The position numbers were made by a program, and so were the translations under genes. 64,000 bases of DNA from an uncultured delta proteobacterium (GTDB lineage: Bacteria; Desulfobacterota; Binatia; UBA9968): positions 288,001 through 352,000 of the forward strand of contig CAVTUQ010000025.1 of NCBI GenBank assembly GCA_963737905.1, in the 5' to 3' direction. This document shows, piece by piece, positions 19,921 through 59,743 of the stretch. Below the pieces are notes generated by a model. It did no database searches. It saw only the letters and a list, made by a program, of their open reading frames with translations, and had not been told where the DNA came from. Each line of letters opens with the position of its first letter. The stretch's first letter is position 1.

Positions 19921-21366
19921 ATGGATCAGGGAAAGATCCTGGTTACGGAAGACGAAGAATCGCTGCGCTTTGTGCTGAAGAAGGCCCTCGAAAACGAAGG
20001 CTATTGGGTACAAACCACGGCCAACGGTAATGCGGCGCGCCAGTTACTGACGGAAACACATTTCGACGTCTCACTCATGGACATTAAATTGCCCGACGCG
20101 GATGGTCTAAGCTTGCTGAAAGAAATCAAAGAAGCAGGCATCGATACTGCGATGATCCTGATGACCGCCCAGAACACCATGCGCAATGCCATCGGCGCCA
20201 TGAAGAACGGGGCCTTCGATTATATTACCAAGCCCTTTGATCTTGATGAGGTCCTGGTCCTGGTCAAACGGGCCATCGATAGCCGCAAGTTAACCCGGGA
20301 TTTCCGGGAACTCAAAGAAGAAGTGAAAAAACGTTTTGAGCCCGGCGTCAATATCATCGGCACGAGTTCCAACATGCAGAAGGTCTACAAGACCATCGGG
20401 CAGGTGGTCGATACCCATGCCACGATTTTGATTCAGGGAGAGAGCGGCACGGGCAAAGAGCTGGTCGCCAAGACGATTCATTATAATTCGCCGCGCTGGA
20501 ATCAGCCGTTTGTCGCGATCAACTGCGCAGCCATCCCTCGTGACCTGTTGGAAAGTGAGCTCTTCGGTCATGAAAGGGGTGCCTTCACGGGCGCTCTGGA
20601 TCGGCGCATCGGCAAATTCGAGTTGGCCGAAGGCGGGACGCTTTTCCTCGATGAGGTGGGCGACATCCCGCTGGAGCTGCAAACGAAACTTCTTAGAGTC
20701 TTACAGGATCGCGAGTATAGCCGTGTCGGCGGCAGGGACGTCTTGAAGGCCGATGTTCGGATTCTGGCGGCCACAAACCAGGATCTCGAGAGAGCGGTCA
20801 AAGAGAAGCGCTTCCGTGAAGACCTCTACTTTCGTCTCAAAGTGATTCCGATTTACTTGCCGCCGTTGCGCGAGCGCAAGGGCGACATTCCGCTCTTGAT
20901 CAGCTACTTCATCGACAAGATCAATCGCGAAATGGGCATCCAGATCTCTGGCATTTCTCCGGAAGCCCAGAAGCTTTTGGAAGAACACACTTGGCCCGGC
21001 AACGTTCGCGAGCTGGAGAACACGCTTATCAGAGCGGCGGTGCTCTCCTCCGGCCCTATCTTGTTTCCCAAAGATTTTACTTTACAGAACAAACCGGCGA
21101 TCGCGAACCTCGAGGTGGATCAATTGTCCTTCGAAGAGATTATCCGCCACAAACTCGAAGACTACTTTCGCCGAACCGGTGACGTGGATTTGGATAACCT
21201 TTACTCTCTAGTCATCGAAAGAATCGAGCGGCCATTGATTGAGCTGACGCTCAAAAAAACTCGCGGCAATCAAATCCGCGCGGCGCAGATTCTCGGCATC
21301 AACCGAAACACGCTGCGCAAAAAGATCGTCGACCTGCGGATTGAGGTCAAAAGAGAAAGCAGTTAA
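19921..21366 (+). CDS. ntrC: Sigma54-dependent response regulator, NtrC/GlnG-like
   Basis: Receiver, GESGTGKE, GAFTGA, GNQIRAAQILGINRNTLRKK HTH. Confidence 0.85.
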   Translation: MDQGKILVTEDEESLRFVLKKALENEGYWVQTTANGNAARQLLTETHFDVSLMDIKLPDADGLSLLKEIKEAGIDTAMILMTAQNTMRNAIGAMKNGAFDYITKPFDLDEVLVLVKRAIDSRKLTRDFRELKEEVKKRFEPGVNIIGTSSNMQKVYKTIGQVVDTHATILIQGESGTGKELVAKTIHYNSPRWNQPFVAINCAAIPRDLLESELFGHERGAFTGALDRRIGKFELAEGGTLFLDEVGDIPLELQTKLLRVLQDREYSRVGGRDVLKADVRILAATNQDLERAVKEKRFREDLYFRLKVIPIYLPPLRERKGDIPLLISYFIDKINREMGIQISGISPEAQKLLEEHTWPGNVRELENTLIRAAVLSSGPILFPKDFTLQNKPAIANLEVDQLSFEEIIRHKLEDYFRRTGDVDLDNLYSLVIERIERPLIELTLKKTRGNQIRAAQILGINRNTLRKKIVDLRIEVKRESS

Positions 21367-21373
21367 CCGCTCC

Positions 21374-22006
21374 ATGCCACAGCCTTCACGAAGGCTCCAA
21401 CTACCGCCGCTTTACGCCATTCTCGATCCCGAGCAAACCAAGGGCCGCGCCACCGAGACCGTCCTCCGCGAGCTTTTGGAAGGCGGGATTAAGCTGCTTC
21501 AATTGCGCGCCAAGGTACTAACCGCCGGCGACTTCCTCCAGCTCGCACGGGTCGCGCGCAGATTGACGCGGTCCTCCGGATGTAAAGTGATCGTCAACGA
21601 CCGCGTGGACATCGCGCTTGCCTGTGACGCCGACGGTGTCCACCTTGGACAAGAAGATTTACCCCTATACGCCGCGCGGAAGTTGATGGGCGACAGCACG
21701 ATCGGCATCTCGACCCATGCAGTGGAGCAAGCCAAAGAAGCTGAAGACGGCGGCGCTGACTACATCGGGTTCGGTCCGATGTTCGGATCCACGACGAAAG
21801 AAACAGGCTACAGCGCGCGCGGCCTGGAAATGCTTCGCCGAGTTCGTGCAGCAATCGCCCTCCCCATAGTCGCCATCGGCGGAATCACCGAAGCGAACGT
21901 TGTAGAAGTCTGGCAAGCCGGCGCCGATTCCGCAGCCATCATCAGCGATATCTTAGGCGCGGACGATATAGCGGATAAGGTCAAAAGAATTCTAGCTCTC
22001 CGTTAA
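21374..22006 (+). CDS. thiE: Thiamine phosphate synthase
   Basis: QLRAK, VNDRVD, GVHLGQED, GISTH, STTK, VAIGGI. Confidence 0.96.
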   Translation: MPQPSRRLQLPPLYAILDPEQTKGRATETVLRELLEGGIKLLQLRAKVLTAGDFLQLARVARRLTRSSGCKVIVNDRVDIALACDADGVHLGQEDLPLYAARKLMGDSTIGISTHAVEQAKEAEDGGADYIGFGPMFGSTTKETGYSARGLEMLRRVRAAIALPIVAIGGITEANVVEVWQAGADSAAIISDILGADDIADKVKRILALR

Positions 22007-22124
22007 GCCGTGTAAACACCTCTTCCTCGATTCGCATCCTATGGTTCTCCGTCCAAAAGACGAAAATCTCGCTCCACTGTTGCACTTGCTGGGGTGATGG
22101 CGCTCAGGGTAAACTCTCATCAGC

Positions 22125-22445
22125 ATGAGTAGAACCTTCGACAAGGTCGTGCTCTGGTTCAGCGCGCCGAAGTGAGGATATCGGACCACGGATATGATGA
22201 TGTCTGACGAAAATATCCTCGCCAGGGATGTCTTGGCCGGTGTTTTCAACGGTATTGTCGTCGAAGACTATCCGAGCTATGGCAAGGGACCATGTGTGCT
22301 TGTCCTGCAAAAAGATCTGAACCAGGAACCGATCCACGTCGTCTGGGGAATTCCGAAGGATTTATCGTCGCCGGCGGTTGTCGTGACCGCCTATAGACCT
22401 GATCCCGATATGTGGTCTGAAGATTTCACAAGGAGAAAAGCATGA
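22125..22445 (+). CDS. DUF4258-like putative toxin (5' part frameshifted)
   Basis: VEDYP...KGP..LVL...PIHVVW...AVVVTAYRPDP..W. Upstream sequence reads MSRTFDKV / ALVQRAEVRISDHGYD only across two apparent short deletions. Confidence 0.65.
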
Positions 22446-22657
22446 GAAAAAAGCGCCATACAAAACTAGTTCACGAGGGACAATACGTAGCCGAAGTTGA
22501 TGTTGAACTCATCGAGACCGACGAAGGTTGGTCGCCGTACTTGTCGCTGGAGGATACCTACAAGTTAGACGATGGCCGTTTTGCGCTACGTCGGGGCGAC
22601 CTAAAGAGTGCAGCGCGCCTATCGCGCCTGTTCAGCCTGACCCCAGTGCGTGCGTGA
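22442..22657 (+). CDS. Small partner (putative antitoxin) of the DUF4258 gene
   Basis: ATGA overlap; HEGQYVAEVDVELI...WSPYLSLED..KLD pattern typical of DUF4258 partners. Confidence 0.65.
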   Translation: MRKKRHTKLVHEGQYVAEVDVELIETDEGWSPYLSLEDTYKLDDGRFALRRGDLKSAARLSRLFSLTPVRA

Positions 22658-22665
22658 GTTTGATC

Positions 22666-22725
22666 GGAGAACACTCGGATGGAGCCGCCGCGATAACTGC
22701 ACGCGGCTCACCCAAAACGCTAGGC
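22666..22725 (+). other. Degenerate attC site
   Basis: GGAGAAC...GAGCCGCCGCG/CGCGGCTC...GCTAGGC. Confidence 0.6.
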
Positions 22726-22753
22726 GGATCAATAGCAGGTCCTGGACGAAACG

Positions 22754-23290
22754 ATGACTCCACTAACAACAGAGCAGATTGATGCGATGTCCGCAGGTTA
22801 TGAGTTGGATGCGCTCGTGGCCGAAAAAGTCATGGACGAAATTATGCCTACAGCGCCGCACGACCGGGCGCACCTTGAGCCGATTAGGTCTAATGGCGAG
22901 AACTGGATATGCTGGCCGGAGTACGAACACGGAGATAAGTGCGAATGGGCACCCCTTCCGTTCAGCACAGATCCGACGGCTGCTTGGAAAGTTGTGAGTC
23001 GGTTTGAGCCCTGGGTTTGCCGTTTTCAATCAGCGGACGGATTCATTCATCTTGCTTGCGGCCATTGGGCAGATCACGGAAACTGCATCGAACATGGGTG
23101 GACGGAAGAAGAGGAAAAGTTGGAAGCCGACCCAGAAGCGTGGTCGTTTCACATTCATTTGGGCCTATTGGCCGAGGGGGATAAAAGTCCGCCACATTGG
23201 AAACACGGGGATCGATTTTGCGCGTTCGGCCCCACGGCGCCGCTCGCTGTCTGCCGAGCGGCCTTGAAAGCGATCGCGACGGCGGGCTAA
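22754..23290 (+). CDS. Cassette gene, phage ABA-sandwich-domain-like protein
   Basis: AG.ELDALVAEKVM, P.FSTD..AAWKVV, TAPLAVCRAALKA; the stop lies in GGCTAAC (attC R'' box, rest truncated). Confidence 0.65.
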   Translation: MTPLTTEQIDAMSAGYELDALVAEKVMDEIMPTAPHDRAHLEPIRSNGENWICWPEYEHGDKCEWAPLPFSTDPTAAWKVVSRFEPWVCRFQSADGFIHLACGHWADHGNCIEHGWTEEEEKLEADPEAWSFHIHLGLLAEGDKSPPHWKHGDRFCAFGPTAPLAVCRAALKAIATAG

Positions 23291-23353
23291 CAAGGCCGTG
23301 AACCTGCGCCAGTCCCCGACCCTACACACGGGTCGTAGGTCAAATCAGGGCGT

Positions 23354-23437
23354 CACATCAAAAGTAAAGAAGGAGGCGTCCGCTTTCTAAAGACGATCAT
23401 TCCCAGCCGAAAAGCCACGAAGGAGTATCTAAAATGA
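23354..23437 (+). pseudogene. BrnT-like toxin C-terminal remnant
   Basis: ...GGVRFLKTIIPSRKATKEYLK* with ATGA overlap to the antitoxin; no N-terminus present. Confidence 0.65.
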
Positions 23438-23718
23438 GCGGCAACCCGCTGAAATTGGACGAAGAGGAATTGCAGGTCCTGCGTGATTTTGAACGCGGGG
23501 AGTTTGAGAGCATTCAGCATTTTCGAAAAGAGAAACGTAGTCTGGAAGCAGCCGCCAAAAGAACTCTCCAAAAGGATAAGCGCATCAACATTCGCATTTC
23601 CTCCCGCGACCTGGAGAAGCTACAAAAACGAGCCGCCATGGAAGGGATTCCCTATCAGACATTCATCGCCAGTACCTTGCATAAGTTTGTAACTGGTAAG
23701 CTCAAGGAGCCCGGCTAA
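23434..23718 (+). CDS. CopG/RHH-type antitoxin
   Basis: KDKRINIRISS.DL..L...A..EGIPYQT; stop in GGCTAAC R'' box. Confidence 0.8.
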   Translation: MSGNPLKLDEEELQVLRDFERGEFESIQHFRKEKRSLEAAAKRTLQKDKRINIRISSRDLEKLQKRAAMEGIPYQTFIASTLHKFVTGKLKEPG

Positions 23719-23736
23719 CTTTTGCGCTGCAACCGG

Positions 23737-23886
23737 ATCGTCGCCATCGGCGGCATTACCGAAGCGAACGTTGCCGAAGTCTGGCAAGCCGGCGCTGATT
23801 CCGCAGCCATAATCCGCGACCTCTTGGGCGCGGGCGATGTTGCGGATAAGGTCGGAAGGATTCTAGCTCTCCATCAAGCCCTGTGA
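23737..23886 (+). pseudogene. thiE: Diverged duplicate of the thiE 3' end
   Basis: IVAIGGITEANVAEVWQAGADSAAIIRDLLGAGDVADKVGRILALHQAL*; about 21 mismatches over about 150 nt versus 21866-22015 (hand count). Confidence 0.9.
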
Positions 23887-23917
23887 ATATGGTTTCACAC
23901 CCTGCGCTGTCTCTATG

Positions 23918-24057
23918 ATTTACAATCGCCATACTCGGAGAGTAACATTTGGCTCCGCGGTTTAGTCCAACCCGTTTTATTCCCCGTCGCTCCTTCGACG
24001 ATCTCTCCCAGGCTTGATTGCTTCCAGGCTTTGGGGATAAAACGCTATACGTTATAG
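23918..24057 (+). mobile_element. Orphan right end of a tyrosine-recombinase/IS91-type element, abutting a cassette core site
   Basis: 24012-24054 matches 57018-57060 at 42/43 nt. TTTACAATC..CATA and GGCTCCGCG.TTTAGTCCAAC.CGTTTTAT.CCCC are also shared. Ends CTATAC|GTTATAG. Confidence 0.85.
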
Positions 24058-24067
24058 CGCACTTGAG

Positions 24068-24682
24068 ATGGACGTGTACGGGAAATTTGCTGAGCTAAAG
24101 GAGGTAGAGCGCGAAGGCGTCGATTACTGCGTCTGTGTCGTCCGGAGAAAGCACTCGTCCACCGTCGTCTTGGCGCCCCATGGCGGAGGTATCGAGCCCG
24201 GGACCTCGGAAGTGTCGAGGAAGATCGCGGAAGACGACTTGTCCTTAGCCATATTCGAAGGGAAGAAGTCCGTGGGCAACGCTCGCCTTCACATGACAAG
24301 CACGAACTTCGATGAGCCCCGGTGTCTGGAGCTCATCCAGGCTACCGACAGTGTGGTCGCAATCCACGGCGAAGAAAGCAAAGAACCAGTCATATTTCTG
24401 GGGGGTAGAGACAAGAAGCTGGGCGCGCGATTACGTGCAGCGTTGGAGAGGCACGGGTACAAAGTCAAGGTGCACGAGAATCCTGAGCTACAAGGGATGG
24501 CTACCGCCAATGTCTGCAACCGCGGGCGCCAAGGGGCAGGCGTTCAACTCGAGCTGAGTTTTGGGTTGCGCGAGACCTTTTTCGAGTCATTGACAGCCGA
24601 AGGCCGGAAGAAGCCCATTGATGAACTGGCCAAGTTTGCAGGCGCGGTACGGGAGGGGTTGCGTGCCGCAGGTGCGCTCTAA
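24068..24682 (+). CDS. Cassette gene, poly-gamma-glutamate hydrolase family (PghP/YjqB-like)
   Basis: APHGGGIEPGTSE, HMTSTNFDEP, AIHG, NVCN, GVQLEL; flanked by GTTATAG and CTCTAAC. Confidence 0.85.
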   Translation: MDVYGKFAELKEVEREGVDYCVCVVRRKHSSTVVLAPHGGGIEPGTSEVSRKIAEDDLSLAIFEGKKSVGNARLHMTSTNFDEPRCLELIQATDSVVAIHGEESKEPVIFLGGRDKKLGARLRAALERHGYKVKVHENPELQGMATANVCNRGRQGAGVQLELSFGLRETFFESLTAEGRKKPIDELAKFAGAVREGLRAAGAL

Positions 24683-24710
24683 CCCTTGAACACCGCGATG
24701 AACGTTAAGC
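24677..24710 (+). other. Internally deleted (34-bp) attC
   Basis: CTCTAAC...GTTAAGC with only 20 nt between the R boxes. Confidence 0.55.
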
Positions 24711-24717
24711 TCCAAAC

Positions 24718-25113
24718 GTGAATCCACTATCACGAAAACTGACGACAGGTACAATTGGGGAGCTTCTCGTTCAGCTTCGCCTGCTCCAGTTTGATGTCCA
24801 AGCGGCGCCACCACTCAAGGATTCTGGCAATGACCTCATCGCAGTCCGCGGGCATGCGATGCGGGCCATACAGATAAAGACTAGCGCGGGACATGCTTTT
24901 AGCGGCCGTCGTTTACCAAGATTTTATCACATCCTTGCGGCTGTTCGCCTCGTTGGCGATGGAGAAATTCTGCACCTGGATAAGTGCGAAGTTTTCCTGA
25001 TTCCCAAGGAGGAGCTACCGACTGTTTCCCGGCAGTTCGCTCGTTTATTGGATTATCGGTTGACACGGAGCTTGGTTGATCGGTTATTCAAGCCAAGAAG
25101 ATTACACAGATGA
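24718..25113 (+). CDS. Cassette gene, PD-(D/E)XK nuclease-like protein
   Basis: GE, D.G.DLIA, IQIKT catalytic-like pattern. Confidence 0.6.
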   Translation: MNPLSRKLTTGTIGELLVQLRLLQFDVQAAPPLKDSGNDLIAVRGHAMRAIQIKTSAGHAFSGRRLPRFYHILAAVRLVGDGEILHLDKCEVFLIPKEELPTVSRQFARLLDYRLTRSLVDRLFKPRRLHR

Positions 25114-25123
25114 GTGCCATGGA

Positions 25124-25213
25124 GCCTAACTTTTGCCCCAGCCGTTGCACCGATTGCGTCCCTGTTGGACTTCGGACACCGTGGGCGGCGCGCCACTGAG
25201 CGTTACGTTAGGC
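25124..25213 (+). other. attC site
   Basis: GCCTAAC...GTTAGGC, perfectly complementary R boxes, 90 bp. Confidence 0.75.
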
Positions 25214-25223
25214 CTCTTAGCTA

Positions 25224-25745
25224 TTGATCGAGATGATATATCTTCTGGGCGTCAACCATGGTGTACAGTTCGAGAGCAAGACCTCGGATATGAACGTCAT
25301 TAATGCGTTTGAGGACTACTTAAGGGATGCGTGCGCAAGGTATAACACTGACTGCATCGCAGAAGAGATGAGCATCGAATCTCTGAAGAAATGGGAAGCG
25401 ACCCGGTACGTATGTAGATCCATTGCCGACACGCTATCCATAAGACACATGTTTTGTGACCCAGACTCAAATGAGCGCAAGAAAAAAGGGATAAAACTTG
25501 AAAAGGAAGTTAGGGAGGCCTTGGGCTACGGACAAATTTTGAGCGATTCTCAGGTAGAGAAACTAGACGAGGCGTTAAAAACACAATGGCCGCTCCGTGA
25601 ACAATTTTGGTTGGAAAAGATACTCGAAGCAGAAGCAGAGCGCACCTTGTTTGTGCTTGGTAGCAGCCATATCGAGTCATTTTCAGAGCTACTAAGTCAA
25701 AAGGGTATTGGTTTTGTCATCTTGGAAAGAAAGTGGGACACCTAA
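25224..25745 (+). CDS. Cassette hypothetical protein
   Basis: AT-richer ORF between GTTAGGC and ACCTAAC; LGVNH, IAEE, RE..W and G..H pattern. Confidence 0.7.
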   Translation: MIEMIYLLGVNHGVQFESKTSDMNVINAFEDYLRDACARYNTDCIAEEMSIESLKKWEATRYVCRSIADTLSIRHMFCDPDSNERKKKGIKLEKEVREALGYGQILSDSQVEKLDEALKTQWPLREQFWLEKILEAEAERTLFVLGSSHIESFSELLSQKGIGFVILERKWDT

Positions 25746-25816
25746 CCCGTCACTAGGGGTCATCGCCGAGCAGCGGCGCTAGTGCTAGTTGAAGTGAACT
25801 CATAATGATTTCTCAA

Positions 25817-27141
25817 CACTACTGTCCCAACGTTGAAATCGTGAACCGGTAAAAGCTATTAAAAAGACTTAACTTTTTGTTGAAAATGCAATTTATCGAT
25901 TTGAAATCAAAAACGCTCCAAAGCCACACTTGCGTATCCCCGCGCAAGGAGATGGCTAATGAATTCAGGAAAGACGGTGTTCTCTCAACTGATGGACTTT
26001 GTGCCCTCATACGAATTCCGCCTCTGTGTGGATCGCTATCACGGCAACCACAAAGTGAAAAGCTTTTCATGCTGGGACCAGTTTCTATCGATGGCCTTTG
26101 CTCAGCTTACCTATCGCGAAAGTCTCAGAGACATCGAGACCTGTTTGAGAGCTGCGGGCGAAAAGCTTTATCACATGGGCATTCGCGGCAAGGTCTCTCG
26201 CAACACCCTAGCTCACGCCAACGAGGTGCGCGACTGGAGAATCTACCAAGACTTTGCCCAAGCCCTGATTCAAAACGCCAGAGAACTTTATGTGGGAGAT
26301 CCTCTCCAAGTTCAGCTCGATCAAACCGCCTATGCCTTAGATTCGACCGTCGTCGATCTGTGTCTGACGCTATTCCCTTGGGCGAAGTTTCGAAAGCGCA
26401 AGGCCGCCGTGAAGCTTCATACCCTTTTGGATTTACGTGCCAGCATCCCCACCACCGTGATTGTTACTACGGGAGCGGTCCACGATGTGAACATCATGGA
26501 CGAGCTTTTTTGGGAGCCAGGGTCGATCTACGTGATGGACCGGGGCTACGTGGACTTCGCTCGGCTTTACCGCATCCAGCAAGATTCGGCCTTCTTTGTC
26601 ACCAGAGCCAAGAAGAACTTTCGCTTCCAACGCCTTTACTCTCACCGAGTCAACAAAGCCACCGGCCTTCGCTGCGATCAAACCGTGGTGCTTTGCGGTT
26701 TCTACGCTCAAAAAGATTATCCCGAAAAGCTGCGTCGCATCCGTTATTTCGATCAGCAAACCAACAAAGCTCTGGTTTTTCTGACCAACAATTTTACCTT
26801 ACCGGCTTTAATCATCGCCCAATTGTATCGATGCCGCTGGCAGGTGGAATTGTTCTTCAAGTGGATCAAGCAACACCTTCGTATCAAAGCCTTCTATGGC
26901 ACCAGCGACAATGCCGTGAAGACACAGATCTGGATTGCCATCTCGATCTACGTGTTGGTGGCGATCATCAAAAAGCGCTTGAATCTCGATCACAGCTTAT
27001 ACTCGATTCTACAGATCCTGAGCGTGACAACCATGGAGAAAACTCCGCTCATACAAGTACTTTCGCAGTTCGATGAGTCGGAAAAAATGCTCGATAACAG
27101 CAAACAACTGATTTTGTTCAATTAACGTTGGGACAATAGTG
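25817..27141 (+). mobile_element. IS4-family insertion sequence, complete
   Basis: 18-bp IRs CACTACTGTCCCAACGTT and AACGTTGGGACAATAGTG (1 mismatch); 9-bp target duplication ATTTCTCAA at 25808-25816 and 27142-27150. Confidence 0.95.
25959..27125 (+). CDS. IS4 family DDE transposase
   Basis: LDST, MDRGY, Y..RWQVELFFKWIKQHL (YREK motif). Confidence 0.96.
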   Translation: MNSGKTVFSQLMDFVPSYEFRLCVDRYHGNHKVKSFSCWDQFLSMAFAQLTYRESLRDIETCLRAAGEKLYHMGIRGKVSRNTLAHANEVRDWRIYQDFAQALIQNARELYVGDPLQVQLDQTAYALDSTVVDLCLTLFPWAKFRKRKAAVKLHTLLDLRASIPTTVIVTTGAVHDVNIMDELFWEPGSIYVMDRGYVDFARLYRIQQDSAFFVTRAKKNFRFQRLYSHRVNKATGLRCDQTVVLCGFYAQKDYPEKLRRIRYFDQQTNKALVFLTNNFTLPALIIAQLYRCRWQVELFFKWIKQHLRIKAFYGTSDNAVKTQIWIAISIYVLVAIIKKRLNLDHSLYSILQILSVTTMEKTPLIQVLSQFDESEKMLDNSKQLILFN

Positions 27142-27250
27142 ATTTCTCAATTGTAATTATCGATGGAAGCGTTTTTCATTTTTTCCGCACGCCTTGACAG
27201 TCACCCTTGATCGTCGGGCGGACGATCACTGAGGAACGGAACCGCGACTG

Positions 27251-28366
27251 GTGAGAGTTATGGTCACGAAGTTGGGCTTCTGCGATGGACTTCTCGTTTC
27301 GCTCGATCAGTTGAGCGCGTTGAAGCGATCCAAGGAGCTTATCTGTCTCCTGCTTGACAGAGGAACGTGGACTTTTTCTCTCATTGGACCCCCCGTCGGT
27401 GATGAAAGGCGCACCTCCATCTGGAACGTTGCGCGGGAGGCGGAGGCGAGCCCTGAAGACCGACAATATTGGGCTGAACTCCGGACCCTCTGGAGTCAAC
27501 TAAAAAATTTCAGCCTCTCACCCTTCCTGGGCGATTCGATCGCCAACGGCGAAATCACGGGCCTAGACTACGCTTCCCTTCTCCAATCTTGGCGACCAAA
27601 ATACGAGGAGTTGAGCGACGTGAAGCGACTCAAGGAGGTTGTCTGCCTCCTGCTTGACAGAGGAAAGTGGCACGATTTTCCTCTGGTTGAACCACCCGTC
27701 GGTGATGAAAGGCGCACCTCCGTCTGGAACGTTGCGCGGGAGGTGGAGGCGAGCGCCGAAGACCGCCAATATTGGGATGAACTACGGAGCCTCTGGAGTC
27801 AACTGCAATATGTCAGATCCTTCCTCTTACCCTTCCGCGCCCTGCCCCAAGTGGGCGATTCGATCGTCAACGGCGAAATCACGGGCGTAGACTACGCTTC
27901 CCTGCTCCACTCTTGGCGACCAGAATACGACGAGCCAGAGAGTCTCCACTCTAGGATCCACGAGGCCCTCGAAAGGTCGCAGACCGATCCAGTTCAGTTT
28001 GACTTTGCGGGATGCTGGCTTTTCAAGAACAACCGCTATTCGATAGAGGGCCACTACGACAGCGAGGAAAAGAAACTCCTGGTCGTGGAGGAGTTCGATA
28101 AAGAAAGAAGGCACTTCGAGCGGCTACACCATAAGCACAGGTCAGCCGGTTCTGACAGCAACCAGCCAGGCCGTCCACGCGTGCCAGAAGCCGTCAGAAT
28201 CGAGGTATGGCGGAGAGACGGGGGGCAATGTTCAAGGTGCGGAAGCCGAGAGAATCTCGAATACGACCACATTGTCCCTCTTGTGAGGGGAGGCAGCAAC
28301 ACAGCGAGGAATGTTGAACTCCTCTGCGAGAAGTGCAATCGCTCGAAGGCGGATAAGATTGAGTAA
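27251..28366 (+). CDS. Cassette gene, HNH endonuclease with a tandemly duplicated ~100-aa N-terminal domain
   Basis: VWRRDGGQCSRCG...LEYDHIVP...GGSN...N.ELLCEKCNRSK; repeats at about 27311-27610 and 27611-27930. Confidence 0.85.
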   Translation: MRVMVTKLGFCDGLLVSLDQLSALKRSKELICLLLDRGTWTFSLIGPPVGDERRTSIWNVAREAEASPEDRQYWAELRTLWSQLKNFSLSPFLGDSIANGEITGLDYASLLQSWRPKYEELSDVKRLKEVVCLLLDRGKWHDFPLVEPPVGDERRTSVWNVAREVEASAEDRQYWDELRSLWSQLQYVRSFLLPFRALPQVGDSIVNGEITGVDYASLLHSWRPEYDEPESLHSRIHEALERSQTDPVQFDFAGCWLFKNNRYSIEGHYDSEEKKLLVVEEFDKERRHFERLHHKHRSAGSDSNQPGRPRVPEAVRIEVWRRDGGQCSRCGSRENLEYDHIVPLVRGGSNTARNVELLCEKCNRSKADKIE

Positions 28367-28398
28367 GAGGAGAAAAAAGCGACATTCTGAGTTATTAG

Positions 28399-28455
28399 GC
28401 CTAACCTCTGCTTCAGACCGACGCGGAATACGCGCAGCTGAGCACAGCGCTAGGC
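28399..28455 (+). other. attC site (short)
   Basis: GCCTAAC...CTTCAG..CGCG/CGCG..CTGAG...GCTAGGC. Confidence 0.7.
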
Positions 28456-28462
28456 GGACATC

Positions 28463-28945
28463 ATGAACCGATCGACATTTACCACCTCCCCGGACAACCG
28501 TTATTTTGAAGATTATGTCGTCGGAGCGGTGCACGAGTTCGGTACGATCTCGGTGGAAGAAAAAGAAATCCTCGACTTTGGACAGCGCTTCGTTCCGTTG
28601 GCTTACCACATCGATAGGGAAGCGGCAAAAAAGAGTATCTACGGCGGTTTGATTGCGAGCGGCTGGCATACCGCTGCGCTCATGATGCGGCTTTACGCGG
28701 ATAACTATTTATCTAAAGTAGCGAACCTCGGCTCCCCTGGCGCTGATGAGCTGAAATGGGATAACCCGGTCTTCCCCGGCGATGAGCTGTCGATTCGCAT
28801 CACAGTTTTGGAAACCCGCCGCTCCGAATCTAAACCGGATCGCGGCATTGTCCGCTCTTTTGTCGAGGTACTGAACCAAAAACGCGAAGCCGTGATGAGC
28901 GTAAAGATGGTGAACTTTGTGCGGAGCCGAGAGACCCCGGCGTAA
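28463..28945 (+). CDS. MaoC family dehydratase
   Basis: YFED, H.D..AA..S.YGGLIASGWHT, PVFPGD. Confidence 0.9.
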   Translation: MNRSTFTTSPDNRYFEDYVVGAVHEFGTISVEEKEILDFGQRFVPLAYHIDREAAKKSIYGGLIASGWHTAALMMRLYADNYLSKVANLGSPGADELKWDNPVFPGDELSIRITVLETRRSESKPDRGIVRSFVEVLNQKREAVMSVKMVNFVRSRETPA

Positions 28946-28970
28946 TTCCGGAAACAGCAGGAACTAAATT

Positions 28971-30344
28971 CTAGGCTTCGTCCGCCTCTTCGTAGTCGAA
29001 TTCGTCACGCGGCGTAAAATTCTCAAACCGCATAAACTCGTTCAAAAAGGTCAGTTCGACGGTATCGATGGGGCCGTTTCGCTGCTTGGCGACGATAATT
29101 TCGGCGATGCCCTTTTTTTCCGAATTCTGATTGTAAACCTCGTCCCGATAGATAAACATGATGACGTCTGCGTCCTGTTCGATGGCTCCCGATTCCCGCA
29201 GATCGGACATCATCGGCCGCCGGTCGCCGCGATCCTCAACCCGACGGTTGAGCTGCGAGATGGCGATGACCGGAACGGTCAATTCTTTGGCCAAAGCCTT
29301 TAAGGAACGTGAAATTTCTGAAATCTCCTGTTCACGGTTTGACGCGGCTCCCATGCCGCGCATCAACTGCAAGTAATCAATGACGATCAGCCCGACCTTC
29401 TTCGTCCGGTCACGCACCAGGCGCCGCGCCTTGGCGCGCAGCTCGAGAACCGAAATTGCGGGCGTATCGTCGATATAAATCGGCGCCTCGTGGAGCCGAC
29501 CAGCGGCGTTCGCCAATTTTGGGAAATCTCGTTCTGCTAAATAGCCGGAGCGAACTTTGGAATTGTTAACGTGGGCTTCGGAACAAAGCATGCGGAGAAC
29601 GAGCTGCTCCTTGGCCATTTCCAGGGAGAAAACCGCGACTCCGACTCCCGTAAATGCCGCGTTGGTGGCGATATTGAGGCTGAAGGCGGTCTTACCCATG
29701 CTGGGTCGACCGGCAACGATAACCAGGTCGGATGGCTGGAGCCCGGCGGTAAGTTTGTCCAAATCTTCGTAACCCGTGGGCACGCCGGTGACCATCTCCT
29801 TGCGTTCATACAGCCTTTCGACTGTTTTGAGCGTGTCCTTGATCATATCCCCGACGGCGACGAAGGATGCTTTGACCTTCTTTTCCGATATATCAAAGAT
29901 CACTTTCTCCGCCGTGTCCAAAAACTCATCGACGTTGCCCTGCTCTTCGTAACCTCGCGTTGCAATCTCCGTTGCCGTACTGATGAGACTGCGCAAGATC
30001 GCCTTTTCCCGTACAATACGCGCATAGTAGGAGATGTTGGCCGCTGTCGGTACAAAATCAGCCAGAGAAGCCAGGTACGCGCTGCCTCCGACCGCGTCAA
30101 GCTCGCCCCGACTTTTGAGACACTCGCTCAGCGTGATGAGATCCGCCGGCTCGCCGCGGTCCGTGAGCTCAATCATGCCGCGGAAAATCTTGCGGTGAGA
30201 TTCGCGATAGAAATCTTCGGGGCGAACCAATTCCAAAACGAGATTAATGGCGTCGTTTTCAAGCAGAATTCCTCCCAAGACGGAAGTCTCCGCCTCGAGA
30301 TTCTGAGGAGGAACCTTTCTGAGATTGTCGTCCAAAGCTGCCAT
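28971..30344 (-). CDS. dnaB: Replicative DNA helicase
   Basis: GRPSMGKT, SLEM, IDYLQL, SQLNR, DLRESGAIEQDAD, KQRNGP; no intein. Confidence 0.98.
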   Translation of the reverse strand: MAALDDNLRKVPPQNLEAETSVLGGILLENDAINLVLELVRPEDFYRESHRKIFRGMIELTDRGEPADLITLSECLKSRGELDAVGGSAYLASLADFVPTAANISYYARIVREKAILRSLISTATEIATRGYEEQGNVDEFLDTAEKVIFDISEKKVKASFVAVGDMIKDTLKTVERLYERKEMVTGVPTGYEDLDKLTAGLQPSDLVIVAGRPSMGKTAFSLNIATNAAFTGVGVAVFSLEMAKEQLVLRMLCSEAHVNNSKVRSGYLAERDFPKLANAAGRLHEAPIYIDDTPAISVLELRAKARRLVRDRTKKVGLIVIDYLQLMRGMGAASNREQEISEISRSLKALAKELTVPVIAISQLNRRVEDRGDRRPMMSDLRESGAIEQDADVIMFIYRDEVYNQNSEKKGIAEIIVAKQRNGPIDTVELTFLNEFMRFENFTPRDEFDYEEADEA

Positions 30345-53979: not shown

Positions 53980-54140
53980 CCGTTCCTACACCCAACTGAT
54001 CAAAGCTACCTTTCAACCTCATTTTCTACCTTGTCACTCCTGGTATCGCATGGACCGCTGCCGCCACAAGGCACTCCTACTCAAGTTTGTGCGCGAGCGA
54101 CGCCCCGGCGCCGGATCGAGCGCTATTCACCGCGCGGTTG

Positions 54141-54289
54141 ACTTTTGCGACTCATCTCCTCGAAGACGGCTACGACATCCGAACCGTCCAGGAATTATTA
54201 GGGCATAAAGACGTTTCGACTACGATTTTTACACTCATGTGTTAAATCGTGGCGGCAAGGGTGTTTTCAGTCCCGCTGATCGGCTTTAA
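54141..54289 (+). pseudogene. intI: Integron integrase C-terminal remnant
   Basis: [28 protein letters not shown] / [19 protein letters not shown] (1-nt frameshift); characteristic IntI C-terminus; N-terminal part absent. Confidence 0.88.
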
Positions 54290-54400
54290 TAACACCCTTG
54301 TTGCATGTGAGGGCGGTTCTTTCTTTGAGAAAGGTCATGAAAAAAAAGTCTATGGGAGAGGATTTGGTAACCGCTGCCGTGCTACACCGCGGGCTGATAT

Positions 54401-54553
54401 CTGGATACCCCGCCCCCGGCGCAGCGTTTGTCGGGAAAAGAGATTGACAAGGCAGCGCTTGTTGGCGGATATTGCAGCTGTTTTTGCTCTTACTCGATTG
54501 CGGATTCCTGGATACCCCGTCGGAAGAGCCGGCAGTTCACTTAATAGTTGAAC
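54401..54553 (+). promoter_or_regulatory. Putative Pc promoter and attI
   Basis: 12-bp direct repeat CTGGATACCCCG (54401, 54508), TTGACA(54444)-18 nt-GATATT, core GTTGAAC at 54547-54553. Confidence 0.55.
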
Positions 54554-54689
54554 TAAACCGCTTCGCGGTGGCACTGGTTATGTAAGGTCGGTGCCACTCA
54601 CTCTACCTTTGTTTTTCATTGATCTTGCTAGCTGATTGTTTTTCTCTGAACTAGCGTAGTTCCCAAAATTAATCCAAGGAGGATTTTTT

Positions 54690-55538
54690 ATGGGAGCACT
54701 ACGAGAAAAGATGGTTGGGGAGATGAAACTGCGCAACTTCGCGTCCAGGACACAGAAGTCTTACCTTGCCGTGATGGTGGGGTTGGCCAAGCACTATCGT
54801 CAGTTTCCGGATCAACTGACGCAGGAGCAGATCCGCACCTACCTGTTGCATTTGCAGGAGCGGGGGCTGTCGAGCAGTTCGCAGAACGTGGCCATCTCGG
54901 GGCTACGGTTTTTCTATCAGCAGGTTTTGGGGTGGACCCAGGAGCAGATATTCTTGCCACCGAGAAAACGCACCTGGCGATTGCCGGAGGTGTTAAGTCC
55001 CAGGGAAGTGGAGCGATTGCTAGCTGCCGCAGTCAAGCTTCGCGATCGCTGTTTGCTAATGACGGCCTACTCGGCAGGGCTTCGGGTCAGCGAGCTGGTC
55101 CACCTCAAACTGAGCGATATCCATACCGAGCGGATGATGATCCGCGTAGAACAGGGCAAAGGGAAAAAAGACCGTTACACCATTCTCTCCCAACGGCTGC
55201 TCGGTGAGCTGAAGAGATACAAGCAGACTTATCAACCGGTTTCGTGGGTCTTCTTTGGCAAGAACAGAAATTGCCCTTTGGATATCACTGCAGTCCAGAA
55301 AGTCTACAATCGAGCCAAGCAGAAAAGTGGCGTTGAAAAAGGCAAGGGCATTCATACATTGCGCCATTGTTTCGCAACCCATCTTCTTGAGGGCGGAGTG
55401 GACCTGTGCACGATCAAGACGCTGTTGGGGCATAACTCGCTTCAGAGTACCCAGCGCTACCTGCAGATTCGCCAGCCCAAGTTGAGCTCGACCACGAGTC
55501 CGTTAGACTTGCTCGATCTGCGTGACCCCCCGCTTTAG
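54690..55538 (+). CDS. Tyrosine recombinase with N-terminal SAM-like domain
   Basis: GLRVSE, GKGKK, HTLRH, LGH, Y: full R-K-H-R-H-Y set; no IntI-type insertion. Confidence 0.95.
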   Translation: MGALREKMVGEMKLRNFASRTQKSYLAVMVGLAKHYRQFPDQLTQEQIRTYLLHLQERGLSSSSQNVAISGLRFFYQQVLGWTQEQIFLPPRKRTWRLPEVLSPREVERLLAAAVKLRDRCLLMTAYSAGLRVSELVHLKLSDIHTERMMIRVEQGKGKKDRYTILSQRLLGELKRYKQTYQPVSWVFFGKNRNCPLDITAVQKVYNRAKQKSGVEKGKGIHTLRHCFATHLLEGGVDLCTIKTLLGHNSLQSTQRYLQIRQPKLSSTTSPLDLLDLRDPPL

Positions 55539-55550
55539 TCGGGCACGATC

Positions 55551-56726
55551 ATGCTGCTTGCCCGTCCAGGGCTGGTGGCAGGAGAGAGAAGCGGGGGCCC
55601 CGAACTGGCCGATATCTTTCGTAGTCACGGGCAGAGCTACCAACGAACGCATCGCCTATCGGCCTCTGAGCAAAAAGTGATGCGGGCCGTTGAGGTCTGT
55701 CGCACGGCTGAATTGGGAGGGCATCTCAAGCAGTGCGACACTTGCGGCTTTGAGCACCCGACTTATAACTCCTGCCGTAACCGCCACTGTCCTAAATGCC
55801 AGTCGCTGGCCAAAGCCAAGTGGTTGGAGAAGCAGACCTCTGAGCTTTTGCCGGTGGGCTATTTTCATCTGGTCTTTACCTTGCCGCACCTTCTCAACGG
55901 CTTGATCCTGGCCAACAAAAAGATCCTGCTAAGCCTGCTGTTTAAAGCCGTCAGTGAAACGTTACTAGAGTTTGGCCAGACACGTCTTAAGGGAACCCTC
56001 GGAATCATCGCCGTGCTACACACCTGGGACCAAACGCTCAAGGATCATTTTCATCTGCACTGTTTGGTTCCCGCCGGCGCTCTGTCTTCGAATCACAGCC
56101 GTTGGATTGGAGCACGGCCAAACTTTCTGTTTCCTGTCACCGCTCTGAGCCAGGTGTTTCAGGGAAAGTTCCTGGCTCTCTTACAACAGGCCTGTGATAA
56201 AGGAAAAATCCCGCCGGCCAACAACGAGATCAAAGCATCACGGCAAAAGAGCTGGGTGGTCTACGCCAAAAAGCCGTTCGGTTCTCCACAGACCGTGCTC
56301 GATTACCTCGGCCGCTATACCCACCGCGTGGCGCTGTCCAACGAGCGCATCCTTTCGGTCCAAAACGGTCAGGTCACCCTGAGTTATAGAGATCGAAAGG
56401 ATGGCAACAGAAAAATGACCATCCCCCTTGACGCCCAGGAGTTCATCCGCCGCTTCCTGCTTCACGTCTTGCCCGATGGCTTCATGCGCATCCGTCACTT
56501 CGGGTTTTTAGCCAACCGCTCTAAAAAACAGGCCTTGGCTCAGTGTCGCAGACTGCTAAAAATTGAGGCCGCGTTGCCGGAAACCCCGAAGGAGTCAGCT
56601 AAAGATTTGTTGCTGAGAATCACCGGCATCGATCTGAGTCGCTGCCCTTCCTGCCATCGGGGAACCATGATCGTCGTCGCTGAGCTGCCGCCGATTTCAA
56701 GCCCGTCTCAATGGGATTCTTCATGA
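55551..56726 (+). CDS. IS91 family (Y2 HUH) transposase with Zn-binding domain
   Basis: C..CG...YNSCRNRHCPKC, HLVFTLP, HTW...HFHLH, YLGRY, EFIRRFLLHVLP.GF.RIRHFG. Confidence 0.96.
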   Translation: MLLARPGLVAGERSGGPELADIFRSHGQSYQRTHRLSASEQKVMRAVEVCRTAELGGHLKQCDTCGFEHPTYNSCRNRHCPKCQSLAKAKWLEKQTSELLPVGYFHLVFTLPHLLNGLILANKKILLSLLFKAVSETLLEFGQTRLKGTLGIIAVLHTWDQTLKDHFHLHCLVPAGALSSNHSRWIGARPNFLFPVTALSQVFQGKFLALLQQACDKGKIPPANNEIKASRQKSWVVYAKKPFGSPQTVLDYLGRYTHRVALSNERILSVQNGQVTLSYRDRKDGNRKMTIPLDAQEFIRRFLLHVLPDGFMRIRHFGFLANRSKKQALAQCRRLLKIEAALPETPKESAKDLLLRITGIDLSRCPSCHRGTMIVVAELPPISSPSQWDSS

Positions 56727-57087
56727 GAAAAACTCAAATGCTGATAAGCCCTTTTTACTGTTTACAGGCCGTCGTCGCACAGGTGTGTCTGCTGATACCC
56801 AAAAGTTGCTCCCATGCCCCATTGCACCGTAGCCATCAAACAAAATCTACCGACCTCGATCTCAACCTTCTCCTGCTTCTCGATCTATCGCTCACACAGC
56901 ACCACCCTCGGCACCGCTGTGCCACTTTACAATCCGCATAGCCGCAACCTCCGTGCGGCTCCGCGCTTTAGTCCAACACGTTTTATCCCCCCGTGGCGCT
57001 TGCCAGAATATTTTGGAGCTTGATTGCCTCCAGGCTTTGGGGATAAAACGCTATACGTTAGGCAAGCCAAGGCAAGCCCAGTATGCG

Positions 57088-57663: not shown

Positions 57664-59665
57664 AGGAACGCCGGTTACCCGGCGCCCCCCGTACAGACCC
57701 CGGCGTGCAGTTTTTCCGCACCGGGTTCCTCGGTCCTACTCGCTTCCGCGCAAGACCTAGCCATCAAGCAAACACTCTCCGTCGCGGCATCTCGGTGATA
57801 CACGGCTTGGCGATAGAGACACATTTAAGCACCCGCTCAAACTGCTCCCATGTGTAGCTTCGCCGCCAACTCCGACGGTTGAGCCACTTGAAGGCGCAGT
57901 TTATCGCCCACGCATAGAAGCGGTACAGCGAGTGCGAGTTGCCTCGCACACCATAGTAATTGTAATGACCGCGTAACCGAGCGTTTAACCGCTCGAAAAA
58001 TTCGCCTCCAGGCAAGTGTCGGTTGAGCTTGATCCATTCCTTGATCCTACGGCATGCAGCCTGCAATCTCTTGCGGGCCGTACGCCGCTTTACCCTCGGC
58101 ACGCCTTGCCGATCGAGCTTCCACTGAAACTCGAAGCCCAGAAAGGCAAAACGATGCTTCAGTCTCGGATGAAATCGACTGAAACGCAGGATGCGTGTCT
58201 TCTCCGAAGCCACCTCTAAGTTGAACTTCGCCAACCGCTTCGGTAGCACCCGATAAAACCGCTCTGCGTCTTCCCGATAGCGGAATGCCCACACCGCATC
58301 ATCAGCATAGCGACACATGATCGCCTCTCCCCGGCTCCGTGGCTTAACGACTTTCTCAAACCACAAGTCCAATGCGTAATGTAAGTACACATTGGCGAGC
58401 ACCGGGGAAACAATCCCGCCTTGAGGAGTGCCGGTATCTGGATGAATGACCTCTCCATCTGTCTCCAAAATGCCAGCCTTCAGCCATTTCCGAATCAGGT
58501 CAAGAAAGGCCTGGTCGTCGATGCGCAGACTCAGCATCTTCAGCAGCCAGTCATGGTCCATATGATCGAAAAAGCCTTTGACATCAGCCTCAACCACATA
58601 CCCATAGACTCCGTATTGCAGGTCGAAGGTGAGGTCTCTCACCCCATCCAACGCACTGCGCTCGGGCCGATAGCTATAACTGCAACTTAGGAACTCCTGC
58701 TCGTAAATCGCACTCAAAAGCTTCGCACAGGCCAACTGAACCAGCTTGTCTTCCAACGCCGCTATCCCTAACGGCCTCTCTTTACCATCCTCCTTCGCAA
58801 TGTATCTTCGCCTCACCAACTTCGCCCGATAGCGCTTCGCTCTCAGTCGCTCTACCAGCGCCTCGATGTTAGCCTTGAGATTTCTCTCATAAGCCGCCAC
58901 CGTGACCCCGTCCACACCCGCCGCGCATTCTGTTCAACTGCGGCCAGCACCACATCACGTACTCAACGTTCAAGTACCGGTAAAGATCCTGAAATCGGTG
59001 GCACTTGTTGGCTTTCGCCTTGTTTGCTATTTCCCGCAGGAAGGTTGGCTCGTGTTCTCCCGGCCCAACTCTGTCCGGCACGAGTTGCCTATGCAGGTTT
59101 CGTAGTTCCGTCAGGTCCTTCCCCATGTACGTGGCTTTCCCACGCTCCGAGTACTATGCCTGATAAGACCCCCTAAGCTTGCGGCGGGCTTTCCCTCTTA
59201 CAGTACTTCTCCGCCTACCTCGCGGCGTTCCACTCGGGCGCTCTAGGTTCCAGCATAGCTCCGTCTCCGGGTTTCCCCTTGTGTGCCTCATTAGCTGTAT
59301 ACCCTACTCCCTAGTTTTGCTCCGCTTGGAACCCATGGGGCCTCCCGGGTTCTCCTAGCGTATCTCTCCCTGCATGCCATGGCCTGTGGACTCCGGCGGA
59401 CCTCCACATCCTCGCCCTATCGGATGCTTCGTGTTGGCTTCGTGCACGTTAAAACACTCGCCGTCCGCAACAACCCTATCTCGAAGCTGTACCAGCTCTT
59501 CAGGACGCGCGGTCGTCCCTACGGCCTACAGGATTCTCTGTCTACGCTTCGCCTGTCTCGTTCGCCTTTCGGCTCCTCCACAGACGCAAGACTCGATACG
59601 GGCGGGTGGCTCACCCTTACCCGACGGGGACTCTCACCCCGTAAGATACGCCGAGCTTTGGCGGA
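57664..59665 (-). mobile_element. Group II intron (IIC-attC type) inserted antisense in an attC site
   Basis: Domain V GAACCCGGTGCGGAAAAACTGCACGCCGGGGTC and domain VI near 57665-57730; 5' region CGGCGTATCTTACGGGGTGAGAGTCCCCG next to TAAC of the attC at 59663. Boundaries approximate. Confidence 0.85.
57764..59126 (-). CDS. ltrA: Group II intron reverse transcriptase/maturase (frameshift near 58927; no En domain)
   Basis: AGVDG, RPLGI, GTPQGG, RYADD, FLGF, LRGHYNYYG; N-terminal part in another frame; true start uncertain. Confidence 0.9.
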
Positions 59666-59743
59666 TAACGATCGGGTTGAGTCCGATCGTCCGCCTACTC
59701 GCTTGCGCTCGCGAGCTGCGTCCGCTCACCCTCAGCGTTAGGC
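59663..59743 (+). other. attC site (remainder after intron insertion)
   Basis: GGATAAC..GGGTTGAG ... CTCACCC..GTTAGGC. Confidence 0.75.

Follow-up and report, generated by a model that had tools for sequence, protein, structure and literature searches.

The locus described here raises the question of why a short non-coding stretch resembling the end of a transposable element should lie directly in front of a gene cassette. It is found in a 64,000-nt stretch of DNA (hereafter, the window), in which an earlier note, made from the letters alone, had singled out positions 23918..24057 as an orphan right end of the element at 54.5-57 kb, inserted independently at a cassette boundary, decayed since, and standing in for an attC. 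The claimed repeat is present (42 of 43 nt are identical between 24012-24054 and 57018-57060), and the remnant as a whole matches the non-coding 3' end of full copies. When the whole 6.7-Mb genome was searched with BLAST, the remnant (23951-24054) aligned with the right end of the window's full element at 82.9% identity over 105 nt (E 1.6e-22), with the C1 copy at 89.4% over 104 nt (E 2.8e-32), and with the C22 copy at 84.5% over 103 nt; in a related genome, one copy (L030) reached 92%. Since the remnant resembles other copies more than the one at 57 kb, it reads as an independent, decayed insertion, as had been proposed. The "same element" of that proposal is right as to the family but not as to the copy, the remnant being a member of a diverged family rather than a duplicate of the element 33 kb away.

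The stretch is real but longer on its left than first delimited. Aligned with full copies, its homology runs past 23918 to about 23893-23898, an approximate limit (some matches begin at window 23898-23905). The remnant therefore starts ~6-11 nt from the stop codon (23885-23887) of a relic of the thiE 3' end, and on the left its homology extends beyond the R''-like box by ~70 nt, as far as the 3' untranslated region of the element. The remnant contains no recombinase, transposase, or left end. A covariance model of the right end, built on 26 ends, scored the remnant itself at 125 bits, and model and BLAST agreed on the same seven places in the genome, comprising three full-length copies (that of the window, C1:58681-61155, and C22:22259-19814) and four truncated right ends (the remnant, C39, C28, which retains a transposase fragment, and C9, of 45 nt). 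A left-end query, run by BLAST against the whole genome, matched only the three full copies. The alignments confirm that the remnant comes, in truncated form, from the right, oriIS-type end of an IS91-family element with a Xer/IntI-like recombinase gene (Table 1).

Table 1. Coordinates of the remnant, its surroundings and the full-length family member in the window, with the evidence for each.
Feature	Position	Strand	Evidence
attR-like relic of the original 3' end of thiE, adjoining the remnant on its left	23737..23887	+	86% to 21866-22016
Truncated right (oriIS-type) end of an IS91-family element (the remnant)	23893..24050	+	BLAST, covariance model, alignment with full copies
Inner inverted repeat CCGCGGTTTAGTCCAAC, ending in the R''-like box GTCCAAC (23965-23971)	23955..23971	+	Alignment
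Hairpin; arms 23973-23984 and 24033-24044, 12 pairs (one T-G), diverged loop of ~48 nt	23973..24044	+	Fold, alignment
Terminal spacer CTATAC, last bases of the element	24045..24050	+	Near-invariant in 26 aligned ends, kept in distant relatives
GTTATAG, target tetranucleotide GTTA plus the core that marks the next cassette's 5' boundary	24051..24057	+	Homologous junctions GTTAGAG
Poly-gamma-glutamate hydrolase cassette; ORF 24068-24682, R''-type CTCTAAC 24677-24683, degenerate 34-nt site ending GTTAAGC 24704-24710	24068..24710	+	PF05908
attC-like site GCCTAAC...GTTAGGC	25124..25213	+	Only R boxes pair; fold z -0.06
attC-like site	25740-25794		Same array
Final attC of the array (GCCTAAC...GCTAGGC); the maoC-like gene follows after 7 nt	28399..28455	+	Fold
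Integron-integrase gene remnant (C-terminal box, then stop)	54090..54242	+	TIGR02249 positions 262-310
attI-like repeat with TTGACA-17-GATATT promoter-like site; full copy inserted at its GTTAGGC core	54291..54547	+	Three empty paralogues
Full-length family member; recombinase 54690-55538, IS91 transposase 55551-56726, right-end module 56925-57056	54548..57056	+	Domain searches, NF033538, empty sites

The full-length copies identify the family. In the window's copy, the ORFs for transposase and recombinase are both full length. The transposase (391 aa) carries Zn_Tnp_IS91 and Y2_Tnp domains and scores 439.6 bits against NF033538 (NCBIfam "IS91 family transposase"; cut-off 125), and homology to the ends of elements with such a Y2/HUH transposase with a zinc domain places the remnant in the IS91 family. 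By analogy, this subgroup would be of the rolling-circle (HUH/Y2) type. The gene upstream of the transposase encodes a tyrosine recombinase of 282 aa (Phage_integrase and SAM-like domains) with near-equal scores for XerA, XerC, XerD, and integron integrase, all below the NCBIfam cut-offs. It is 29% identical over its full length to the one true IntI of the genome (C7:226498-227442) and is without the ~41-residue insertion specific to IntI.

Right ends follow the order CCGCGGTTTAGTCCAAC, 1-2 nt, CGTTTTATCCCC, a loop, GGGGATAAAACG, CTATAC, and GTTN. The inner repeat CCGCGGTTTAGTCCAAC and the left terminus GTTGAACTAAACCGC of full copies are complementary; the left end of these copies begins (G)TTGAACTAAACCGC, and the right-end model gave a weak minus-strand match on the left end (54539-54582). 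The part of PMC13181058 available to us does not describe such complementarity for classical IS91 members. According to the same part, IS91, IS801, and IS1294 have unlike ends, the right one (oriIS) having a subterminal palindrome beside an essential target tetranucleotide, CTTG or GTTC. A subterminal palindrome with an adjacent tetranucleotide of the GTTN/CTTG type is likewise present at the right end here, and the 7-mer that follows begins with GTT in 22 of 27 ends. The left (terIS) end is unlike the right, and there is no target-site duplication: among copies that possess a left end, which the remnant does not, the trinucleotide on the left may be GTT, GGT, TTT, or ATT whereas GTT stands on the right, which argues against a duplication of the target.

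The insertion target can be read from empty sites. Left of the window's full copy stands a repeated stretch of 150-260 bp, three paralogues of which (C34:45597-45772, C34:68768-69031, and C7:414092-414211) are free of the element and end in ...CACTTAATA followed by GTTAGCC, GTTAGGC, and GTTGGGC, respectively, and then by unrelated DNA. The filled site in the window reads ...CACTTAATAG↓TTGAAC..element..CTATACG↓TTAGGC (arrows mark junctions), and the comparison of empty with filled sites indicates that the hairpin module travels with the element. Before the repeat lies an intI remnant whose translation is nearly identical to the genome's true IntI and which is oriented with the cassettes, as is the true C7 intI relative to its own; on this basis we read the repeat as the attI-like site of a decayed integron. 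The window's intact copy evidently sits at the core of this putative attI site, beside the intI remnant. Among other loci, the left flank of the element in L070 is homologous over ~140 nt to the DNA that directly follows the true intI of the window's genome, ending at the core; TTCAxTTAATA stands before the element in both L064 and L068; and in L088 and L089 the complement of the right-flank core lies 53-58 nt left of the element, as expected within an attC.

By the earlier note's own criterion, its reading would fall if most other copies of this end were not followed by GTTRRRY plus a cassette ORF, and the 27 ends compared (seven in the genome and 20 from relatives) do not refute it. An exact GTTRRRY follows the right end in 10 of them, against a baseline of 4.7% of all 93,942 genomic GTT, and at least six of the seven positions match in 17, against 26% of the 93,942 GTT. 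A same-strand ORF starts no more than 80 nt from the right end in 24 of the 27, compared with 51% at 4000 random places. Members of the subgroup thus insert with the right end abutting a GTT-starting integron-type core, at attI sites as well as at cassette junctions, and the targeting would be done by the transposase. The junctions themselves do not separate insertion by a transposase 5' of GTTN from an integrase crossover at G↓TT, because the element starts (G)TTGAAC. We also considered the element as a platform for the recruitment of cassettes, which is not favoured since empty attI-like sites with other downstream DNA exist, as does a true intI with a homologous attI and no element.

Whether the junction to the right of the remnant is a genuine cassette boundary can be judged from homologues of the cassette that follows. 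The hydrolase ORF scores 204 bits against Pfam PF05908, and no fold was found for the cassette's 34-nt site. Homologues in 401 genomes of the phylum (present in 24 genomes) were at most 44% identical and useless for boundaries; a metagenome scan supplied both informative loci, on the contigs L062 (88% aa identity) and L063 (75% aa identity). The hydrolase gene is preceded by ...GCTATAC GTTATAG CGCACTTGAG ATG in the window, by ...GCTATTGC GTTAGAG CGCACTTGAC ATG in L062, and by ...CCAATCC GTTAGAG CACACACGT ATG in L063; the DNA upstream of GTTA is unrelated among the three, and all three genes end ...GCGCTCTAAC and then diverge. In integrons, the first bases of a cassette complete its own attC, and for the hydrolase cassette R'' is indeed the complement of the cassette's own start, GTTAGAG being the exact complement of its CTCTAAC. 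The shared GTTAGAG start, the unrelated upstream DNA, and this complementarity together show that G↓TTA(G/T)AG is a true cassette boundary, the T in the window's GTTATAG being a later change. Both the match of GTTATAG to the complement of CTCTAAC at six of seven positions and the placement of the insertion exactly at a cassette boundary, as the earlier note had them, are borne out. In L062, the upstream DNA holds a different IS91-family transposase gene with a right end of its own, in which GTCCAAC and a 14-bp stem (GCTGCCAACGGGCC/GGCCCGTTGCAGC) quite unlike that of the remnant precede GCTATTGC, and which folds at -28 kcal/mol (z -3.98). Since this end differs from the remnant, two different family members occupy the same junction of the same cassette.

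The left side of the remnant has another history. The thiE relic beside it (151 nt) is separated from the thiE copy at 21866-22016 by toxin-antitoxin and phage-like genes. A genome of the same genus (G002) has the same junction of a CopG-type antitoxin gene and thiE relic and is without the remnant and without the array, so the relic is an old attR-like scar that does not belong to the remnant. The DNA left of the remnant is thus a chromosomal thiE relic and not a cassette. The motif GGCTAAC TTTTGCG at 23712, tried as the left part of an attC that the remnant would have interrupted, was rejected because G002 has the junction without the remnant. Carriage of the thiE relic into the locus by one-ended transposition was set aside as less economical, the relic and junction, common to G002, fitting an old integration at the thiE 3' end.

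In two other genomes (G015 and G017), a MaoC-like dehydratase gene follows thiE after ~22-31 nt, and in the window this gap is filled, from the remnant through the last attC, by a putative array that contains the remnant, the hydrolase cassette, two small ORFs with attC-like sites, an IS4-type transposase, an HNH gene, and a good attC. Only the last of the three attC or attC-like sites listed in Table 1 folds better than shuffles (-15 kcal/mol, z -3.2, with 0 of 200 shuffles as good). No IntI was found in window 18-32 kb, the array has neither intI nor attI, and Rfam gave no family match in 21000-29000. The hydrolase cassette would be the first of a small, decayed, integrase-less array in the short thiE-maoC spacer. 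Ad hoc attC scans (box patterns plus DNA folding) were too noisy genome-wide and served as pointers, the sites being read by eye. The window's other array contains a group II intron.

The suggestion that the remnant stands in for an attC holds for its position, but its left neighbour is the thiE relic, and the extrahelical bases and spacer geometry of an attC are missing. The 12-bp stem is uninterrupted, and the spacers measure 1-2 nt on the 5' side and 6 nt on the 3' side, where an attC would have extrahelical bases and symmetric spacers. Neither does the module move with a cassette on its 5' side; it moves with the IS. GTCCAAC fits RYYYAAC, GTTATAG matches GTTRRRY at five of seven positions (six of seven for GTTAGAG of the homologous junctions), and the two boxes are complementary at four of seven. 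Even with its filters off, the right-end model matched none of the attC sites of the window. In sum, the order of parts and the position are attC-like but the geometry is not, and a use of the site by an integrase is hypothetical.

Copies of ~105-165 nt at 75-92% identity are numerous, lie upstream of same-strand ORFs, and occur in 20 of 41 related genomes, as would be expected if the remnant were an ordinary attC from a homogeneous chromosomal-integron repeat family, the recombinase-transposase unit being one cassette that uses it. However, the homology does not stop at the R''-like box but continues into the 3' untranslated region of the element, left truncation points vary between copies, attC sites elsewhere in the same arrays have unrelated sequences, and the module is tied to IS91 transposases across phyla (37 of 79 loci, by the best stem after a ..CAAC box). 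The ordinary-attC reading is already contradicted by these observations, and we find it hardly credible.

The 79 loci come from a family scan of related transposases in several phyla. The stem that ranked best downstream of the transposase gene directly follows a ..CAAC box at 37 of the loci, and most of these then have a short spacer and GTT; at 19 of the 79 loci, a stem of 10 bp was not found. Among 33 ends with a TTTTA(T/A) core, 16 arm combinations occur, with compensatory changes at five of the 12 pairs (the outermost pair being C-G, G-C, or A-T). Pairing across these 33 ends is 96.4% versus 84.0% in shuffles, the selection of ends having required pairing at five of 12 positions and only the two outermost pairs being free of this bias. 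In the subfamily alone, 91.5% of the cells of the 12-bp stem are paired, as are 69.8% of those of the R-type boxes, and there is no covariation (83.4% of cells paired versus 83.8% shuffled; score 0.082 versus 0.082); because the arms are conserved in sequence, this null result speaks neither for nor against structure. The hairpin therefore covaries across the family, with arms that differ between subfamilies yet stay complementary, and not within the subfamily.

These results bear on the earlier view of the hairpin as conserved arms with a variable loop at a structure-dependent site. The arms and their 12 pairs (one of them T-G) are kept and the ~48-nt loop differs, as had been seen, and the dependence on structure is supported at the level of the family, where arms change and complementarity stays, but not by covariation within the subfamily. 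The bottom-strand fold that the note had proposed as a check came out at -11.5 kcal/mol for the remnant (z -1.36), no better than shuffles, as against -16.3 (z -2.87) for the intact copy in the window. Folding alone was dropped as a criterion, as it does not single out the remnant.

The attC-like layout (R''-like GTCCAAC, 1-2 nt, 12-bp stem, loop, stem, 6-nt spacer, and GTT core) could also mean that the right-end module is a working analogue of attC or attI, that the element is a cassette with its own integrase, integrating at G↓TT via a folded single strand, and that the remnant is still an exchange site. The boundaries of the element are cassette-like (G↓TTGAAC...CTATACG↓TTAGGC), and full copies lie at attI cores, where new cassettes enter. 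In a circular form, GTCCAAC would face GTTGAAC (six of seven positions) and pairing of the 15-nt left terminus with the inner repeat would lengthen the stem; the first position of this pairing covaries between subfamilies (G..C versus A..T). The full-length similarity of the recombinase to the genome's IntI (29%) points the same way, as does the bottom-strand single-stranded circle that IS91 uses as its working intermediate (PMC13181058, in the part available). On the other hand, the stem has no bulged bases, the spacers are unequal, and the arms are conserved in sequence; the recombinase, without the IntI insertion and below all NCBIfam cut-offs, is not a canonical IntI; the core of the remnant fits GTTRRRY at only five of seven positions, and its R boxes are unpaired in the fold; and the end model matches none of the window's attC sites. 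Moreover, the C22 copy is oriented opposite to the neighbouring small ORFs in the ORF list, an orientation more in keeping with a transposase that reads GTTRRRY on either strand than with an integrase. We regard an exchange site of this kind as quite unlikely.

Truncated ends such as this one are common. Matches to the element family were found in 20 of the 41 genomes searched (18 of 24 of the same family). Fourteen of 20 right ends fetched from relatives are without a transposase (tblastn, 0.85-3.2 kb upstream), four have one, and two were too short; all 14 keep the right junction, and their left limits differ, with ~88 to 280 nt retained. The truncated copies are all shorter than ~300 of 2500 nt. 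BLAST pieces in relatives, with G006 left out, comprised 24 right-end-only against six left-end-only pieces, to which contig edges may contribute; nothing stated here depends on the unpublished genomes G006 and G012. The genomes are metagenome assemblies, in which full copies break contigs and are hence under-counted. Short remnants, intact right junctions, and the excess of right over left ends argue against uniform random deletion, and this non-random pattern points to a biased mechanism (abortive rolling circle) or to an end kept for some use. By analogy with IS91, a process that begins at oriIS and yields truncated products would fit the pattern. The remnant in the window starts a few bases from the thiE stop, so that in its case a deletion limited by selection on thiE would fit as well.

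We consider it likely that the remnant is the dead end of an IS91-type element that landed at the first cassette boundary and lost its body, with no function required. Elements of this subgroup end in a conserved module made up of an inner repeat ending ...GTCCAAC, a hairpin of 10-21 bp, and a short spacer, here CTATAC. One such element would have inserted at the 5' edge of the poly-gamma-glutamate hydrolase cassette, after which its body, with whatever stood to its left, would have been lost, leaving the origin end and the exact right junction, the last ~160 nt. The truncation may have come about through a truncated rolling-circle insertion or through a later deletion that selection halted at the thiE stop codon, and what is left probably has no required function now. 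The steps of transposition and truncation are reconstructed from sequence comparison.

The terminal 45 nt of the remnant are as conserved as in intact copies, so it may still be usable. One such use would be as an active orphan origin, nicked by the transposase 33 kb away and mobilising the DNA to its left (the thiE relic and the toxin-antitoxin genes) one-endedly in the manner of ISCR elements. In its favour, the remnant has kept ~160 nt together with GTTA, its last 43 nt are all but one identical to those of the intact copy, and that copy has full-length transposase and recombinase ORFs; in IS91, the final 82 bp and the tetranucleotide suffice, and termination fails in 1-10% of events (PMC13181058, in the part available). 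However, no mobilised product was seen, the genome-wide BLAST showed no other copy of the leftward DNA joined to such an end, and the hairpin has a T-G pair and folds less well than that of the intact copy. Such activity seems rather improbable to us. A broader reading, which we hold to be unlikely, makes the element a hybrid of rolling-circle transposon and integron cassette: its single-stranded circle would pair left terminus and inner repeat into an attC-like hairpin, the element's IntI-like recombinase or a host IntI would integrate it at the G↓TT of attI or attC cores, and its remnants would stay usable as sites or origins, seeding and reshuffling integrase-less arrays.

Integrase-less cassette arrays are common in genomes. 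If true, a widespread IS subgroup that homes to attI and cassette cores and leaves its hairpin ends there could give rise to attC calls that are false or ambiguous. It would also offer a route to the inactivation of integrons, the window's full copy parting an attI-like site and promoter-like motif from the cassettes, and possibly a vehicle for the movement of arrays. More generally, it would connect two systems that work on single-strand DNA, namely HUH rolling-circle transposition and attC recombination.

Among known systems, the subgroup shares with IS91, IS801, IS1294, and IS1294b the HUH/Y2 transposase, an N-terminal zinc domain, unlike ends, and the absence of target duplication, and with the IS91 family truncated or one-ended products that always keep oriIS (PMC13181058, in the part available). 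It differs from the IS91 family in having an upstream Xer/IntI-like recombinase gene, where IS91 members have orf121 or nothing, in its left terminus of ~15 nt complementary to the right-end inner repeat, and in a target that extends to integron-type cores (GTTAGGC etc.) at attI sites and cassette junctions. Members of the IS91 family that have an integrase ORF are listed in ISfinder. By their description, ISShvi3 and further IS91-like elements in which an integrase gene stands upstream resemble the subgroup, and the accessible part of the source paper of ISShvi3 gives no target rule, end structure, or remnants. In the published full texts searched, supplements aside, we found no description of this target rule and only a passing remark on such an element; PMC7923331 and PMC11023631, in the portions consulted, treat IS91 in general terms only or do not mention it.

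ISCR elements are IS91 relatives tied to integrons as well; their oriIS ends are persistent and are believed to mobilise the DNA beside them. ISCR1, however, lies beyond the 3' conserved segment and not at attI or attC cores, and it has no recombinase gene. Its oriIS has outward promoters (PMC6218425, in the part available), whereas the remnant gave only one weak promoter-like match (23919-23948, 9/12), and a terminator scan of the remnant found none. Mobile elements that home to integron recombination sites are also known in the IS1111-attC group (the invasion of attC by IS1111 is mentioned in the available part of PMC9229058) and among group IIC-attC introns, which differ in their DEDD transposase and reverse transcriptase, respectively, and have no attC-like end of their own. 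Lastly, the remnant resembles an integron attC in standing just before G↓TT and a cassette ORF and in its RYYYAAC-type box, imperfect palindrome, variable loop, and GTT core, but it differs in that extrahelical bases are lacking, the spacers are asymmetric, the arms are conserved in sequence, and the module belongs to a transposable element.

The window contains two copies of the 3'-terminal 151 nt of thiE (21866-22016 and 23737-23887; 86% identical), and between them lie toxin-antitoxin genes (DUF4258 and CopG-type) and a Phage_ABA_S gene. These copies look like the attL and attR of an element that integrated long ago into the 3' end of thiE; no integrase is left in this putative element, and the right junction of the duplication is also found in a same-genus genome (G002). 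In the small integrase-less cassette array between thiE and the maoC-like gene, an IS4-type transposase gene (see table) separates the HNH cassette from the attC-like site at 25740-25794. The HNH-domain ORF (27251-28366) contains three direct-repeat pairs (27304-27934; period of ~300-324 nt, 84-93% identity), indicating that this gene underwent internal tandem duplication.

Coordinates of an intron, a transposase and integron-related features in the window and on other contigs of the same genome (C7, C34)
Feature	Position	Strand	Details
IS4-type DDE transposase	window 25959-27125		domains DUF4372 + DDE_Tnp_1
Integron-integrase gene remnant	window 54090-54242		followed by the 150-260-bp repeat
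150-260-bp repeat copies	window 54291-54547; C34:45597-45772; C34:68768-69031; C7:414092-414211
Group II intron	window 57764-59660	minus	Rfam RF02005 at 59380-59634, 119.8 bits
Reverse transcriptase/maturase ORF of the intron	window 57764-58915	minus

On L062, a metagenome contig with a homologue of the hydrolase, there is another IS91-family element (184-1490), which differs from the window's, encodes a 429-aa transposase and has a 14-bp hairpin end of its own. It adjoins the same cassette, that of the hydrolase, and its junction falls at the same base as that of the truncated right end in the window. A locus in another genome (L070, ~2640-2680) carries a full right end, then GTT and the terminal ~21 nt of another right end (TTAGGGATAAAACGCTATAC); here an older remnant has received a nested or repeated insertion. 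Both element genes are whole only in the window copy, whereas the ORF listing has the transposase in three ORFs in the C1 copy (C1:58830-60774) and the recombinase in two in the C22 copy (C22:20122-22116). As the genome is a metagenome assembly, it may contain errors of assembly.

The 150-260-bp repeat, with four occurrences in the genome, contains a TTGACA-17-GATATT motif and terminates in a GTTRRRY core, beyond which the DNA is different at each occurrence. We regard it as a candidate attI with promoter, from a second integron type of this genome. In the C7 stretch C7:226498-229000 (L016 15380-17100), the sole above-cut-off intI of the genome has the same orientation as its cassettes. The DNA after this gene contains two ATATACAGAAGC repeats, a GTTATCC core and toxin-antitoxin cassettes carrying attC sites.

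The group II intron is oriented opposite to the cassettes and adjoins an attC-like end, ...GTTAGGC (59737-59743). This reversed orientation, together with the attC-like neighbour, is the usual arrangement of attC-homing introns.
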